From NCBI GenBank assembly GCA_049968435.1, contig JBMFQU010000001.1:609-64608 (forward strand): a DNA stretch of 64,000 bases. Reading direction: 5' to 3'. Both the position numbers and the translations under genes were made by a program. Shown here one piece after another: positions 36,417 to 57,909 of the stretch. The DNA is from Brevinematia bacterium. Lineage in GTDB: Bacteria; Spirochaetota; Brevinematia; DTOW01. Position 1 is the first letter of the stretch, and every line of letters starts with the position of its first letter. A model generated the notes under the pieces. The model had not been told where the DNA came from. It saw only the letters and a list, made by a program, of their open reading frames with translations, and made no database searches.

Positions 36417-36593
36417 TACTATATATTTTTCGGAAAAATAGTTTAATTAAAGAACTTTAACCAATTTAAAAGTTATAAACTACCTTTAGGTCAGTGAAAG
36501 ATAAACACTCACTACTTTAATCAGAAAGTAAAACTTTTATCTATTATAATAGGAGCTAGGAATTATTTAAGAAACCTCCTTTTGTTACCCACC

Positions 36594-36695
36594 CTTAAGT
36601 TCTACAATTAGAGATGTTAAAAAGTTTAGGAAAATAATAGGAGGAAGGAATTTTTAAGGAATTCCTTTTGCTTTTACCATGCTCTTAAGCGTCTA
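36594..36695 (+). repeat. About 100-bp repeat module, copy 1. It is about 95% identical to 57426-57528 and contains a 12-nt palindrome AAGGAATTCCTT.
   Basis: Direct alignment of the two copies. Confidence 0.7.
36645..36675 (+). terminator. Hairpin 'aaggaatt-tttaagg-aattcctt' followed by a T-rich tract, a candidate intrinsic terminator inside the repeat module.
   Basis: 8-bp AU-rich stem and 7-nt loop, then 'ttgctttt'. An identical structure lies at 57477-57507. Confidence 0.35.
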
Positions 36696-36883
36696 TAGGA
36701 AGCTACACACTCTTTTAATTAACTCTTATTAGAATCTTTCCTCAATATCCAATTGAAGGTTTAATCCTCTTTTAGAAATTACTTTTAGTAATTCTACTCT
36801 AACTGTTTGGAATAAGCAGGATGGAATTTTCAAACATATACTGAATTTTGATAAATCACAAATGAAATGTTTATATTTTTCTT

Positions 36884-40521: not shown

Positions 40522-41410
40522 ATGAATAAGAAAGTAGTAATATTTTTGGTAGTTTCATTTTTATTCAGTTGGATAATTGCTTTAGTAATATGGAAATTTA
40601 GCTTATACGAAGGAAGAAATTTATTGCTTACTACTCTTCTTGTAGTATACATGTTTGGTCCTGCTATAGGAGCCATAATAGCACAAAGATCATCTAATCA
40701 AAAAGTTAAGGATTTAGGTATTGAATTCAAAGTAAATAAATGGTGGATATTAGGAGTATTATCAATACTAACAATAACAATTCTAACTCCTTTAATCTCC
40801 TACCTATTAGGAGGAGGGCTTATAACTTCATGGGAAGAATTACAAAATAAAGTAGTAGAAATTTATAAAAGTGAATTGGCCCAAAAACAAATGGAAAAGA
40901 TAGGTAAAGTTGTAAATAACAATATACTAATATTATATTTAATAACTATACTTTCGGGAGTAGTAGCAGGATTGACTATAAATGGATTAGCAGCCTTTGG
41001 TGAAGAGCTAGGATGGAGAGGATTACTTTTTGAAGAATTCAAGAAATATGGATTTATAAAATCATCATTTCTAATAGGAATAATATGGGGACTATGGCAT
41101 GCTCCTATAATAGCAATGGGGGCATAACTTTCCTCAACATCCTACAGAAGGTATATTTCTGATGACAGCATTTTGTGTAGCACTCGCATTTATAATGAAC
41201 TACTTCAGATTAAAAACTAATTCAGTAATACTCTCTTCAATAATGCACGGAACTCTAAACGGAACAGCAGGCATTTATGTATACGCAAATAAAGTATCAA
41301 ACGATATACTGTATAACTTAACAGGCATAGCAGGTATAATGGTAATAATACTATTAATTTTTATAATCTCATTTGACAGAGAAGTATTTCTGTCAGAAAA
41401 ATTAAACTAA
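40522..41410 (+). pseudogene. CPBP (CAAX) family intramembrane metalloprotease, interrupted by a stop after codon 201 (ORFs 40522-41127 and 41162-41410).
   Basis: The EExxxR motif ('EELGWRGLLFEE') and an FxxxH-like motif ('LWHAP') lie in the first ORF. The HxxxN-like motif ('MHGTLN') lies in the second ORF. Confidence 0.45.
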
Positions 41411-41432: not shown

Positions 41433-42386
41433 ATGAAAAAAGAGATAGTAATATCAGTGCTAATATATTTTTCAGTAATAATAACAGTATTACTCATAAT
41501 ACCATTTTTATCCGAAAATATTTCAAAAGTATTCTCAGAAAATAAAACACCATACGAAATTTATCACGAACTTGGAAAAGACAACAATGAAGAAACAAAT
41601 ATATCCAATACACTATCAGATTATAGCCCTACTGAATTTATGGAAAAAGAATATACCATACCTACCGAAGAACAAATTCAAGACATTATAGTACCAAAGG
41701 GGAAACCTATGATAACCTTAGTAATAGATGATTACGGTTATTCTCTTGAAGAACCAGTAATAACCTCTATAACATCTAGTATACCAATAACAGTAGCCAT
41801 AATCCCATTTCTAAAATATTCAAAAACAATAAATAATTTAGCCAAAATGTACAACAAAGAGGTAATAATTCATCTACCCATGGAAGCCTACAAATTAAAA
41901 ATAAAAGATACCCCTTACATAAAAAAAGGACAAGACTCTACAGAAATCATAAGAATCTTAGAAAAAGCAACTCAGGAATTAGAAGGAGTAGGAATGAACA
42001 ATCACATGGGATCAGAAGCAACAGAAGACCCAGAGGTAATGGAAACAATAATAAGATTTCTTAAAAGAAAGAATCTATTTTTCTTAGATTCACTAACTAC
42101 TCCAAACTCAGTAGGATATAAAAAAGCAAAAGAAATGGGATTAGTCCCTTTAAAAAGAGATGTATTTCTTGATAATTATCCATCACAATATTACATAGAG
42201 GATCAATTGAGGATGGTAGAAAAAGTGGCTACCAAAAAGGGTTACTGTATAGCAATTGGACATATTAGAGAAAACACTATAAAAACTTTAATGAAATGGT
42301 ACCAAGACAATAAATCTAATTATAGATTTACAACTCTTAAGAATCTTTATGAGGAACTAACCAAATTGGAAATAAGCAAAAAATAA
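41433..42386 (+). CDS. Divergent polysaccharide deacetylase (YibQ-like) family protein
   Basis: 'ITLVIDDYGYS' and 'HLPME' motifs typical of the divergent PDA family. N-terminal TM anchor. Confidence 0.6.
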   Translation: MKKEIVISVLIYFSVIITVLLIIPFLSENISKVFSENKTPYEIYHELGKDNNEETNISNTLSDYSPTEFMEKEYTIPTEEQIQDIIVPKGKPMITLVIDDYGYSLEEPVITSITSSIPITVAIIPFLKYSKTINNLAKMYNKEVIIHLPMEAYKLKIKDTPYIKKGQDSTEIIRILEKATQELEGVGMNNHMGSEATEDPEVMETIIRFLKRKNLFFLDSLTTPNSVGYKKAKEMGLVPLKRDVFLDNYPSQYYIEDQLRMVEKVATKKGYCIAIGHIRENTIKTLMKWYQDNKSNYRFTTLKNLYEELTKLEISKK

Positions 42387-42400
42387 GGGGAAATCCCCTT
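42385..42400. terminator. Bidirectional terminator-like hairpin 'aaggggaaatcccctt'. It is duplicated at 42662-42677.
   Basis: 6-bp GC-containing stem flanked by A/T runs, lying between convergent genes. Confidence 0.45.
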
Positions 42401-42413
42401 AAATATCTTAATC

Positions 42414-42623
42414 TTATTGTTTCTTTTCTTTCAAGGTACAAATGCCAAAAATGCTATAAAGCAAACAGAAACCAGTTATAGCAGTCAAAGCTAAGATACC
42501 ACCTACAACAATAAGCACTATTTGTAAAACACCAGAAGTAAAGAATACTCCTACAACAATTAATATTAAAGCTAATACAGCTCTTATTATCCTATCAAGT
42601 AAACTTTCATTAACCTTTAACAT
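42414..42623 (-). CDS. DUF2892 (YgaP C-terminal-like) small membrane protein, copy 1. ATG start with a GGAGG RBS.
   Basis: Two TM helices and 'TGFCLLYSIFGICT' (GxCxxY-like) motif; 69 aa. Confidence 0.6.
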   Translation of the reverse strand: MLKVNESLLDRIIRAVLALILIVVGVFFTSGVLQIVLIVVGGILALTAITGFCLLYSIFGICTLKEKKQ

Positions 42624-42690
42624 ATATAACCTCCTATATATTCTCTTATTAAGCAAAAAATAAGGGGAAATCCCCTTAAATATCTTAATC

Positions 42691-42900
42691 TTATTGTTTC
42701 TTTTCTTTCAAGGTACAAATGCCAAAAATGCTATAAAGCAAACAGAAACCAGTTATAGCAGTCAAAGCTAAGATACCACCTACAACAATAAGCACTATTT
42801 GTAAAACACCAGAAGTAAAGAATACTCCTACAACAATTAATATTAAAGCTAATACAGCTCTTATTATCCTATCAAGTAAACTTTCATTAACCTTTAACAT
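42691..42900 (-). CDS. DUF2892 small membrane protein, copy 2 (identical)
   Basis: Identical to copy 1. Confidence 0.6.
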   Translation of the reverse strand: MLKVNESLLDRIIRAVLALILIVVGVFFTSGVLQIVLIVVGGILALTAITGFCLLYSIFGICTLKEKKQ

Positions 42901-42922
42901 ATATAACCTCCTATATATTCTC

Positions 42923-43579
42923 TTATTTTGCAAATGATAAAACTTGATTTATAAAAGAATGCTCATCTTGAACTCCAATAGTAATAGAATCTTCTGAATC
43001 GTTTATAATTTGGGTAGGAACACTTTCAATACCCCACTTCATAGCTAAATCAGGAACTTCGTTTGCTTCAATAACTTCAGAAGTTACTTTACCACTTGAA
43101 GCAACTGCAATTCTATTTGCAAGATAAGCAGAAGCTGGGCAATAAGGGCAAGAAGGCGTCACAAATACTTTTATATTAACAGGTTTACTAATAGAACTTA
43201 ATTCTTTAGCCATATTTCCTTCTATGTCATGTGAATCATTAGAAACCATAATCAATGTTTCAACAATTTGACTTGCTTCATATCCTAAAGGTGATCCTCT
43301 GAAAATGATCTTATACCCTTTATCTTCACCTATTGTAACTGTAGGATTAGTCTCAATAGGGATACCTACATCACTAACTTGGACATTTTCTCTGAAATTG
43401 ACTTTAATTTTGCTATTAATCTCACCCAATTCCTTAAAAAATTGTTTAGTAAAATTTACATATTCCTCATTTTCATTTTCACCTGTCCTAAAGTAAACAT
43501 TAACAACAACTTCATTCGAAAGTTCTTGAAACCTCTCTTCAAGGAATTTCCTTGATTCATTATCGATGATTTGCTCCAT
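42923..43579 (-). CDS. Glutaredoxin-like protein disulfide oxidoreductase (two thioredoxin-fold units, one CPYC active site)
   Basis: 'SCPYCPAS' active site in the C-terminal unit. The 218-aa two-domain architecture matches thermophile PDOs. Confidence 0.6.
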   Translation of the reverse strand: MEQIIDNESRKFLEERFQELSNEVVVNVYFRTGENENEEYVNFTKQFFKELGEINSKIKVNFRENVQVSDVGIPIETNPTVTIGEDKGYKIIFRGSPLGYEASQIVETLIMVSNDSHDIEGNMAKELSSISKPVNIKVFVTPSCPYCPASAYLANRIAVASSGKVTSEVIEANEVPDLAMKWGIESVPTQIINDSEDSITIGVQDEHSFINQVLSFAK

Positions 43580-43642
43580 AAAATATATACCTCCTAAAAT
43601 TTTTACTCATAAAAGATAAAAATAAAACTTCGAAAAGTCAAA

Positions 43643-51919: not shown

Positions 51920-52038
51920 GCCTGGCGAGTACCTACTTTCCCACCTCGTTGCCAAGGCAGTATCATCGGCGGTACGGGGCTTAACTTCCGGGTTCGGAAT
52001 GGAAACCGGGTGTTTCCCCCGCCCTATGCTCACCAGGC
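51920..52038 (-). rRNA. rrf: 5S rRNA
   Basis: The reverse complement gives the canonical 5S ends and about 119 nt. The segment is GC-rich relative to the flanks. Confidence 0.85.
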
Positions 52039-52089
52039 AAAAAAACATCCATCTGACGATGGATGATGTTTATTAATTTATATTGATGG

Positions 52090-55075
<2,986 letters not shown>

Positions 55076-55131
55076 ACCTTCGCTATGAAAACCATATTAT
55101 GTCTAGAGCAAATTAAGCCTTATAGCTCAAG

Positions 55132-55203
55132 TGGAGGTGAGGGGAATTGAACCCCTGACCTTCTCGGTGCAAGCGAGACGCTCTCCCTCTGAGCTACACC
55201 CCC
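55132..55203 (-). tRNA. tRNA-Ala (TGC) in the 16S-23S spacer
   Basis: Acceptor stem with the G3:U70 identity pair, anticodon loop CTTGCAC, and an encoded CCA. Confidence 0.9.
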
Positions 55204-55220
55204 ACATTAAATAATTAATG

Positions 55221-55294
<74 letters not shown>

Positions 55295-55358
55295 AAAAAG
55301 AAACCTAAAATAAAGACTTAGGAAGATATTTATCTGCCGGACGGGCAAAAGATCACCT

Positions 55359-56858
<1,500 letters not shown>

Positions 56859-57425
56859 TTATAGAGAGTTTATAACTCAAAAATAATTTCTGCACACAAG
56901 ACCCGCCGGCAGATACATATCTTCCTATGTTATAGAGCAACAAAACACCAACAAATTACGTTGGTAACTACTATTATAAAAAAACAATTACATAGTTGCA
57001 AATTAATTTCACTTCTTCAAGAAGAAGTGAAAACCTTCAATATAAAATAGAGCAAAAACCCTTAACTTTCAAAAGGCGAATATAATTATATACAAAATTT
57101 TTCCAATTGTCAAATTCAATAAAAATATCTAAATTCCCAAATCTAAAATTTTTAATCTAAATAATAATTTTCACATACCTTCACTAGAAGGTAGAAATTT
57201 ATTATCTTAATTGAACTAGAAATTTCTTAAGAAAATTCTTCTTGTTTCCCACCCCTCTTTTGATACCTCCCTTTAGTCATCTAAATTAGCCTACATTTCT
57301 TTAAGAAAGTTATTTGCTATTCCTGATAGAAGTTAAGAATTTTAGAAACTTCTTTTTGTTTCTCACCCAACCCGCCCTTAAGCATTTGCAGGAGAGCTAA
57401 CGCCCTCCTACCTAGTAATACCTCC

Positions 57426-57528
57426 CCTAAGTTCTACAATTAGAGATGTTAAAAAGTTTAGGGAAATAATAGGAGGAAGGAATTTTTAAGGAATTCCTTT
57501 TGCTTTTCGCCTGCTCTTAAGCGTCTAC
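57426..57528 (+). repeat. About 100-bp repeat module, copy 2, about 95% identical to 36594-36695. It contains the same terminator-like hairpin at 57477-57507.
   Basis: Direct alignment. Confidence 0.7.
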
Positions 57529-57545
57529 CGGAGGCTTCGCCTCCT
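57528..57545 (-). repeat. REP-like hairpin 'ccggaggcttcgcctcct', the inverted orientation of the 4087-4103 motif.
   Basis: The reverse complement matches 'aggaggcgaagcctcc'. The neighbouring 57361-57425 and 57640-57665 are inverted copies of modules seen at 10205-10260 and 12944-12965. Confidence 0.55.
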
Positions 57546-57909
57546 ATTAGTACCTCCTATTAGAGAGTTAAAAAGTAAAATTTTTAGTTCTCCTAATAGA
57601 ATTTAGGATTTTTAAGAAACCTCTCTTTGTTTACCACCCACCCTATAGTGCCAAGATCTCCCTTTATCTACTGGACATAGAAGATTCTTTATTCCCAAAT
57701 TCCTAATTCCAAACCACTAATTCCAATAAAGTTAATATCTTCCTATTAGCACATTCTTTCAGCAACAACTTCAAAGTTTTAAATCCTATTAGGAAATCTA
57801 CCTATTACCAAATTCTTAATTCCAAGCCTCAAATTGCGATAGATTTAATATTAATAAACTTCTTGAAAAAGAAAATATGTTAGTTAGAAAATAAAAAATG
57901 GAGGCACAA

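Follow-up and report, generated by a model that had tools for sequence, protein, structure and literature searches.

A 277-nt head-to-tail repeat of a YgaP-like transmembrane (DUF2892) gene cassette in a PDO operon of a Brevinematia bacterium, a probable strain-specific tandem duplication

The stretch of DNA analysed in this work, referred to as the window, comprises 64,000 nt of the genome of a Brevinematia bacterium (assembly GCA_049968435.1, contig JBMFQU010000001.1, positions 609 to 64,608 of the forward strand). It contains an operon on the minus strand in which a gene for a protein disulfide oxidoreductase (PDO) is followed by a small gene of the YgaP-like transmembrane (TM) family (YgaP-like_TM or DUF2892, Pfam family PF11127; YgaP_TM hereafter), and this second gene is present in two tandem copies. 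The operon begins with the PDO gene (42923-43579, minus strand), which encodes a glutaredoxin-like, thioredoxin-fold protein of 218 aa (PF13192; E ~1e-33 against the PDB entries 1J08 and 1A8L). A putative promoter-like site (TTGACT, a 17-nt spacer and TATCTT) was detected upstream of it by a consensus scan, at 43613-43641 on the minus strand. Both YgaP_TM copies are likewise minus-strand genes of 69 codons plus a stop codon (PF11127, E 1.3e-17 for each): the operon-proximal copy is located at 42691-42900 and the operon-distal copy at 42414-42623. Each is preceded on the same strand by an AGGAGG ribosome-binding site (RBS), which can be read from the sequence at 42907-42912 and 42630-42635, respectively. 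A minus-strand intrinsic terminator hairpin, TAAGGGGATTTCCCCTTA, with a T-tract was found by a terminator scan after the distal copy (42384-42401), and its duplicate, identified by the same scan and by RNA folding, lies between the two gene copies (42661-42678). A convergent plus-strand gene for a divergent polysaccharide deacetylase (41433-42386; PF04748, E 2e-57) ends inside the last hairpin, which overlaps its stop codon. Along the direction of transcription, the order is promoter-like site, PDO, YgaP_TM, hairpin, junction, RBS, YgaP_TM and hairpin.

The original prediction had proposed a perfect tandem duplication of the DUF2892 gene, and repeat search, Tandem Repeats Finder (TRF, score 1110) and direct string comparison all confirm it. 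Unit 1 (42373-42649), the operon-distal cassette copy that adjoins the deacetylase gene, and unit 2 (42650-42926), the operon-proximal copy that adjoins the PDO gene, are 100% identical over 277 nt and are arranged head-to-tail. This match is not a chance event, since the only other direct repeat of ≥ 60 nt in the window is an unrelated intergenic pair of 129 nt. Each unit holds a full minus-strand cassette, namely the RBS, the 69-aa YgaP_TM gene and the intrinsic terminator, and the RBS that had been noted in each unit is indeed present, 6 nt upstream of the ATG. Unit 1 takes in the last 14 nt of the deacetylase gene (11 coding nt and the stop codon, 42373-42386) and not the last 13 nt, as was reported before. 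Unit 2 ends at 42926 and covers the PDO stop codon (42923-42925) and one further base; the overlap with this stop codon had been recognized correctly, but the PDO gene is transcriptionally upstream of the DUF2892 genes, not downstream. The start of the proximal YgaP_TM gene lies 22 nt beyond the PDO stop codon, and AGGAGG is found within those 22 nt.

A novel junction, CTCTTAT/TAAGCAAAAAAT, is formed between 42649 and 42650 (the slash marks the junction). The deacetylase and PDO genes that flank the repeat are both intact, because a tandem duplication leaves the original sequence continuous on both sides. The locus thereby displays the characteristics of a recent tandem segmental duplication, i.e. 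head-to-tail orientation, zero divergence, a novel junction and intact flanking genes. At the protein level, NCBI lists two consecutive accessions for the exact 69-aa sequence (MGC8766121.1 and MGC8766122.1), numbered between those of the deacetylase (MGC8766120.1) and the PDO (MGC8766123.1). As they belong to the same numeric run as the two flanking proteins, we assign them to the two copies in the window, both of which NCBI seems to annotate.

A mobile cassette, either integron-like or a miniature inverted-repeat transposable element, was considered separately and rejected. Apart from the 7-bp terminator stem, the unit contains no inverted repeat, and no further copy of the unit exists in the window. 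The 12 open reading frames (ORFs) between 36884 and 47817 that were searched against Pfam could all be assigned to ordinary cellular families, with no integrase or transposase among them.

The locus was compared with that of three other metagenome-assembled genomes (MAGs) of the same species, which show 99.0-99.7% DNA identity to the window locus and bring the species to four genomes in total. The first of these, L001 (GCA_049970515.1), is 99.4-99.7% identical to the window and carries one copy with exactly the predicted flanks; its sequence equals the window minus one unit, save for a synonymous T instead of C at 42377. It is the closest relative, since it and the window have the same 1-nt insertion within a G-run of an Rce1-like gene that is intact in the other two strains. 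L003 (GCA_049969235.1) is single-copy as well, and the junction of the window was found neither in L001 nor in L003. At site 42377, C is present in both window copies, and T in L001, L003 and copy A of the remaining strain, L002. The prediction of a very recent duplication rather than a pair of ancient paralogs is borne out by these two single-copy strains, and the orthologous loci of more distant lineages, described below, are single-copy too. Because L001 is both the closest relative and single-copy with ancestral flanks, the window duplication is younger than the split from L001; this dating draws on the single-copy sister strain and on the C at 42377 that is shared by both copies. The Rce1-like CAAX protease gene itself (40522-41410 in the window, with the insertion at about 41116-41120) is split into ORFs of 201 aa and 82 aa, and forms an intact ORF of 295 aa in L002 and L003. 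The split is either a real pseudogene of this sub-lineage or a homopolymer error that was made twice.

The third strain, L002 (GCA_049699335.1, from another submission), has a duplication of its own with a 300-nt unit and a junction microhomology of 3 nt (...CTTATTTCCAAT/TTTATCATTTGCAAAATAAGAG... on the strand of the genes, 5' to 3'). This junction lies in contiguous sequence and not across Ns, and the second copy is broken by a scaffold gap of 100 N. The L002 unit encloses the window unit completely, extending 8 nt further towards the deacetylase gene and 15 nt further towards the PDO gene. In the 3' portions that are visible, the two L002 copies differ at 42377, 42409, 42413, 42423 and 42425, which are the variants that separate single-copy L001 (alpha type) from L003 (beta type). 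Diverged tandem paralogs are thus formally present in a related strain, but their junction and unit length differ from those in the window and do not make the window event old. With L002 and L003 as reference, the last four of these sites cluster within 17 nt at the 3' end of YgaP_TM and define two haplotypes with the C-termini LKEKKQ and LKEEKQ, against a divergence of ~0.5% elsewhere within the species; the two haplotypes are found on the two tandem copies of L002. Such clustered variants could result from recombination import or represent paralogue-derived alleles. An exact 29-mer of the YgaP_TM gene gave no match in the JGI metagenome contigs, in which the species is not represented.

With a probability of about 0.72, we consider that the window carries a strain-specific tandem duplication, by illegitimate recombination, of a complete cassette that forms the second half of a two-gene PDO-YgaP_TM operon. 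The breakpoint sequences, TAAGCAAAAAATAA at the deacetylase end and TTTGCAAATGATAA at the PDO end, match at 10 of 14 positions, and only 0.7% of the 14-mer pairs at the same spacing in the window match as well as these. The strain-specific C at 42377 adds one breakpoint match and creates GCAAA. On the deacetylase side, the breakpoints of the window and L002 are located 11-19 nt beyond the G+C-rich hairpin. The arrangement may have arisen in a single RecA-independent illegitimate event, either a replication template switch or slipped mispairing, that took place just beyond the terminator hairpin as a possible site of polymerase stalling and that was guided by the short imperfect homology between the two breakpoint sequences. 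Such an event would yield the order PDO - YgaP_TM - terminator - YgaP_TM - terminator.

RecA-independent template switching or slipped mispairing is the usual origin of small tandem duplications, and microhomology-mediated tandem duplication and gene amplification have been studied in Salmonella and E. coli. The window resembles those cases in its identical head-to-tail copies, a junction homology in the range of 1-3 nt and single-copy sister strains, and the same instability by recombination between the copies is to be expected. It differs from them in the very small size of the unit (277 nt), which comprises exactly one gene with its own terminator, and in the presence of another duplication of this gene, with other boundaries, in a second strain. 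As a mutation, the event is of an ordinary kind and concerns a gene of a known family; the separate duplication in the second strain is its sole unusual feature.

Several observations weigh against this interpretation or weaken it. The absence of differences over 277 nt dates the event only weakly, as it has a chance of 0.25 at a divergence of 0.5%. The exact microhomology at the window junction is 1 nt, and the homeology of 10/14 is suggestive and not proof. The junction and the copy number, be it two, more than two or a variant within a subpopulation, derive from the assembly alone. Finally, the nesting within the L002 unit would also be expected from a shared origin followed by a deletion at the junction.

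The terminator bears on what the extra copy can contribute. The hairpin has a 7-bp stem with four G-C pairs, is followed by TTTTTT on the minus strand and has a fold energy of -10.4 kcal/mol at 37 °C and -6.5 kcal/mol at 60 °C. It had been described as a bidirectional terminator, of which the minus-strand hairpin and its TTTTTT tract hold; the plus strand, however, has no T-tract and the terminator scan scores the minus strand alone, so that bidirectionality is not shown. No promoter created by the junction was found for the distal copy in the consensus scan: the sole promoter-like hit in its vicinity (42711-42682) lies upstream of the terminator between the copies, and within the PDO-YgaP_TM operon a promoter-like site was found only upstream of PDO. 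Because the extra copy stands behind an intrinsic terminator and has no promoter-like site of its own, any gain in dosage would be at most partial. Its expression would occur only via read-through of the modest 7-bp hairpin, which is plausible to some extent; a two-fold dosage gain is not assured.

Since the source is a MAG, it could be argued that the second copy is an assembly or population artefact. Most cells would then carry one copy, and the repeat would represent a graph loop caused by a minority variant or chimeric reads, or a misestimated copy number. SPAdes-style contig names in JBMF-prefixed MAGs, apparently from the same submission batch, point to a short-read assembly, and as these MAGs include Athalassotoga and Thermoplasmata, a hot-spring short-read metagenome is the likely source. 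An exact 277-nt tandem repeat forms a graph loop with an uncertain traversal count in such an assembly, the corresponding repeat in L002 did break the assembly at the 100-N gap, and the closest strain has one copy. A de Bruijn assembler nevertheless needs reads that contain the junction and cannot create the junction sequence otherwise. In addition, the repeat is situated in the middle of a long contig rather than at its end, the independent assembly of L002 has a contiguous novel junction at the same gene, and the breakpoint homeology exceeds chance, as a biological event would give. The different duplication of the same gene in that other assembly makes duplication here a biological phenomenon that has been seen twice. 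We regard an artefact as very unlikely and the window event as real with high probability; the true copy number could exceed two. The window and L002 might share one older duplication of 300 nt. Under this scenario the window junction has lost 23 nt (TTTCCAATTTTATCATTTGCAAA, on the strand of the genes, 5' to 3'), its copies were homogenised by gene conversion or unequal crossing-over, and L001 and L003 each lost a copy by recombination. The exact nesting of the units (8 nt and 15 nt) would be automatic if the junction was trimmed, this 210-nt gene is duplicated in two of the four genomes known for the species, and the differences between the L002 copies at the five sites listed above are allele-like among the single-copy strains. 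At least four steps are needed, however, namely duplication, junction deletion, homogenisation including site 42377, and two losses, against a single step for a separate event. A single-copy strain with an alpha-type 3' end such as L001 is moreover hard to obtain from an alpha-beta tandem by simple crossover; a deletion normally retains the 3' end of the downstream (beta) copy. The closest relative, L001, also has clean ancestral flanks. We prefer independent events, because a shared origin requires these several steps and fits poorly with an alpha-type single-copy L001, and consider the shared origin improbable.

If the events are independent, two minimal duplications of the same gene in four genomes have to be explained by a local hotspot or by selection that favours an intact extra copy. 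Adaptive amplification would add to the explanation by illegitimate recombination and not replace it: a real duplication would have been driven up twice by a benefit of more YgaP_TM, e.g. under sulfide, thiol or oxidative stress in a hot spring. Both junctions enclose the gene, its RBS and its terminator with margins of only 8-40 nt, the species is represented by four genomes, and random duplications would very rarely hit the same ~50-nt windows twice. YgaP_TM genes occur in thiol-stress gene neighbourhoods (see below), and a DUF2892 gene is strongly induced by sulfide, ~10-fold, in Azospira (PMC5358917). Yet the position of the extra copy behind an intrinsic terminator may leave the expression gain small, and a mutational hotspot, with the polymerase stalling at a G+C-rich hairpin in a genome of 30% G+C, would account for the recurrence as well. 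The number of events is two, and in none of the examined related lineages was a second copy or a remnant of one retained; a search for remnants of older duplicates downstream of YgaP_TM in three related lineages (L004, L085 and L086) found none. Selection for the extra copy is accordingly a possibility that we hold as doubtful, next to the tandem duplication by illegitimate recombination as such.

The assignment of the duplicated gene to YgaP/DUF2892 proved right. Against PF11127, the 69-aa protein scores 64.1 bits (cut-off 25.3), and its residues 3-66 align with profile positions 2-65 of 66. The two TM segments and the cysteine motif that had been read from the ORF were also recovered: in a single-chain AlphaFold2 model with a mean pLDDT of 79.5, helices span residues 8-27 and 32-50, followed by a short helix at 54-59, and the cysteine of the motif GFCLLY (C53) is positioned immediately past helix 2. 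An alignment of 16 homologues shows no variation at N5, D10, R11, R14, V39, G41, T47, F52, C53, Y56 and T63 and hardly any at G51; a G-F-C-x-x-Y motif is present after helix 2. A Foldseek search of the model against the PDB returned non-specific hairpin matches only, a profile search of the subfamily against the PDB sequences returned only non-specific hydrophobic matches and no solved structure, and NCBIfam has no model that matches the protein.

E. coli YgaP is a dimer in which a cytosolic rhodanese domain precedes the TM domain and both ends of the latter face the cytosol; its residues F158-C159-G160 are located at the C-terminal end of the second TM helix (PMC4730233). The window protein resembles the TM domain of E. 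coli YgaP in its whole-profile Pfam match, in the two membrane helices of the model and in the invariant Phe-Cys just past helix 2, which is comparable to F158-C159. By analogy with this equivalent position at the end of the second TM helix, C53 would face the cytoplasm. Unlike E. coli YgaP, the window protein stands alone with 69 aa and has no rhodanese domain, and the upstream PDO gene supplies the cytoplasmic thiol protein as a separate polypeptide. As the protein consists of the TM domain alone, without a fused rhodanese, it is a member of the YgaP-TM family and not a YgaP orthologue. Stand-alone small members of this family appear uncharacterised; a literature search yielded DUF2892 in passing mentions only, with no discussion of PF11127 and none together with PDO.

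The PDO aligns over its full length with the classical PDOs of hyperthermophiles. The alignment pairs profile positions 3-217 with residues 3-223 of 1A8L and 1J08 and covers both thioredoxin-fold units (E ~1e-33). Like the PDOs of Pyrococcus (1A8L, 1J08) and Aquifex (2AYT) and the family TIGR02187, it has a C-terminal CPYC, which is invariant and is placed in a conserved FVTPxCPYC context. The CPYC reported earlier is confirmed, but the N-terminal CXXC of classical PDOs is missing: EYVNF is found where CQYC would be expected, and the score against TIGR02187 (171.8 bits) is below the curated equivalog cut-off of 185. None of the aligned Brevinematia PDOs has the N-terminal CXXC, whereas YgaP_TM-paired PDOs of Elusimicrobia and Bacteroidota/Kryptoniota keep both sites, i.e. 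CQTC or CQYC together with CPYC (L044, L035, L081 and L069). The Brevinematia lineage seems to have lost the N-terminal site. Single-site relatives occur in Thermotoga.

The order PDO→YgaP_TM is conserved beyond the species. It recurs in single copy, with 11-29 nt between the genes and differing flanking genes, in four other Brevinematia lineages, of which the PDOs are 82% (L004), 71% (L085), 69% (L086/L087) and 63% (L098/L099) identical to the window protein. A PDO-profile search of genome contigs, in which the matches listed, on the general motif FVTPxCPYC, were all relatives with ≤ 45% identity, supplied 80 distant species loci. Among these listed matches, YgaP_TM is directly adjacent to PDO on the same strand in 9 of the 80 loci (downstream in Elusimicrobia, upstream in Bacteroidota and Kryptoniota) and is found within ~4.4 kb of PDO in 13 of the 80; the rough chance expectation for a gene that occurs once or twice per genome is under 1%. 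A scan of the JGI metagenome contigs with the PDO protein gave only relatives at 63% and 45% identity.

YgaP_TM was also found inside a cluster with an extracytoplasmic function (ECF) sigma factor, a zf-HC2 anti-sigma factor, a thioredoxin and a PDO (L090-L092 and L096-L097). Its order (with the YgaP_TM homologues P0005 and P0009) is ECF sigma, zf-HC2 anti-sigma, thioredoxin, YgaP_TM, a Zn-ribbon protein, an unknown gene and PDO, and in L090-L092 it continues with an unknown gene, a thioredoxin-reductase-like flavoprotein and a desulfoferrodoxin. The cluster PDO is a full-length homologue of the window PDO (E 3e-29). Another YgaP_TM homologue, P0007, stands alone. The cluster spans ~1770-6150 in L090-L092 and ~1430-4110 in L096-L097, with unknown proteins of ~103 aa and, in L090-L092, of 72 aa. 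This arrangement resembles a thiol/oxidative-stress regulon, and two small proteins within it are uncharacterised. The resemblance to SigR/RsrA-type thiol-stress operons lies in the closest YgaP_TM homologues outside Brevinematia, which directly follow the thioredoxin in the ECF/zf-HC2 cluster; the window locus differs from such operons in that it consists of the PDO/YgaP_TM pair alone, with no sigma factor, anti-sigma factor or reductase nearby.

The original prediction had suggested a thiol or sulfur redox function. This gains support from the conserved order in the four other Brevinematia lineages, in the 9 of 80 listed distant loci and in the thioredoxin clusters; the invariant F52, C53 and Y56 and the sulfide induction of the Azospira gene also speak for it. 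Based on gene order, a thiol-redox partnership between PDO and YgaP_TM is likely. In such a partnership, the cytoplasmic PDO would act on the conserved cysteine past helix 2 of a YgaP_TM dimer, and the pair may constitute a module that handles thiols, persulfides or disulfides on the inner side of the membrane. The fused rhodanese of E. coli YgaP would occupy the place of this cytoplasmic thiol partner. Two facts count against the coupling: it is derived from gene order only, and PDO is present without an adjacent YgaP_TM in two related Brevinematia lineages (L088 and L089) as well as in L007 and L008. The far-reaching proposal that YgaP_TM is a dedicated membrane partner or substrate of PDO in a multi-phylum module, and that its dosage has also been under recurrent positive selection with minimal duplications risen at least twice, is unlikely as a whole.

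Two further features of the window are recorded here. A non-coding element of ~130-145 nt occurs twice in direct orientation with 88% identity (36589-36733 and 57421-57564), with one copy preceding trmE and the other located ~560 nt before the 16S rRNA gene. The element includes a AGGAATTTTTAAGGAATTCCTT hairpin and had no Rfam match at the gathering score; the copy on the trmE side is also present in L001. The rRNA operon (5S, 23S, tRNA-Ala, tRNA-Ile and 16S; 51920-56862, minus strand) has 53-56% G+C, with 55.7% for the 16S rRNA gene in a genome of ~30% G+C, which is compatible with a moderately thermophilic lifestyle.

Taken alone, the duplication in the window is a routine strain-level structural variant. 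A 210-nt gene for which two of four genomes show duplications with distinct junctions nevertheless offers a small natural case in which a mutational hotspot can be set against selection. For the widespread YgaP_TM family, the pairing with PDO and the stress-cluster context lead to the hypothesis that the invariant cysteine at the cytoplasmic end of helix 2 may be serviced by a thioredoxin-fold protein.

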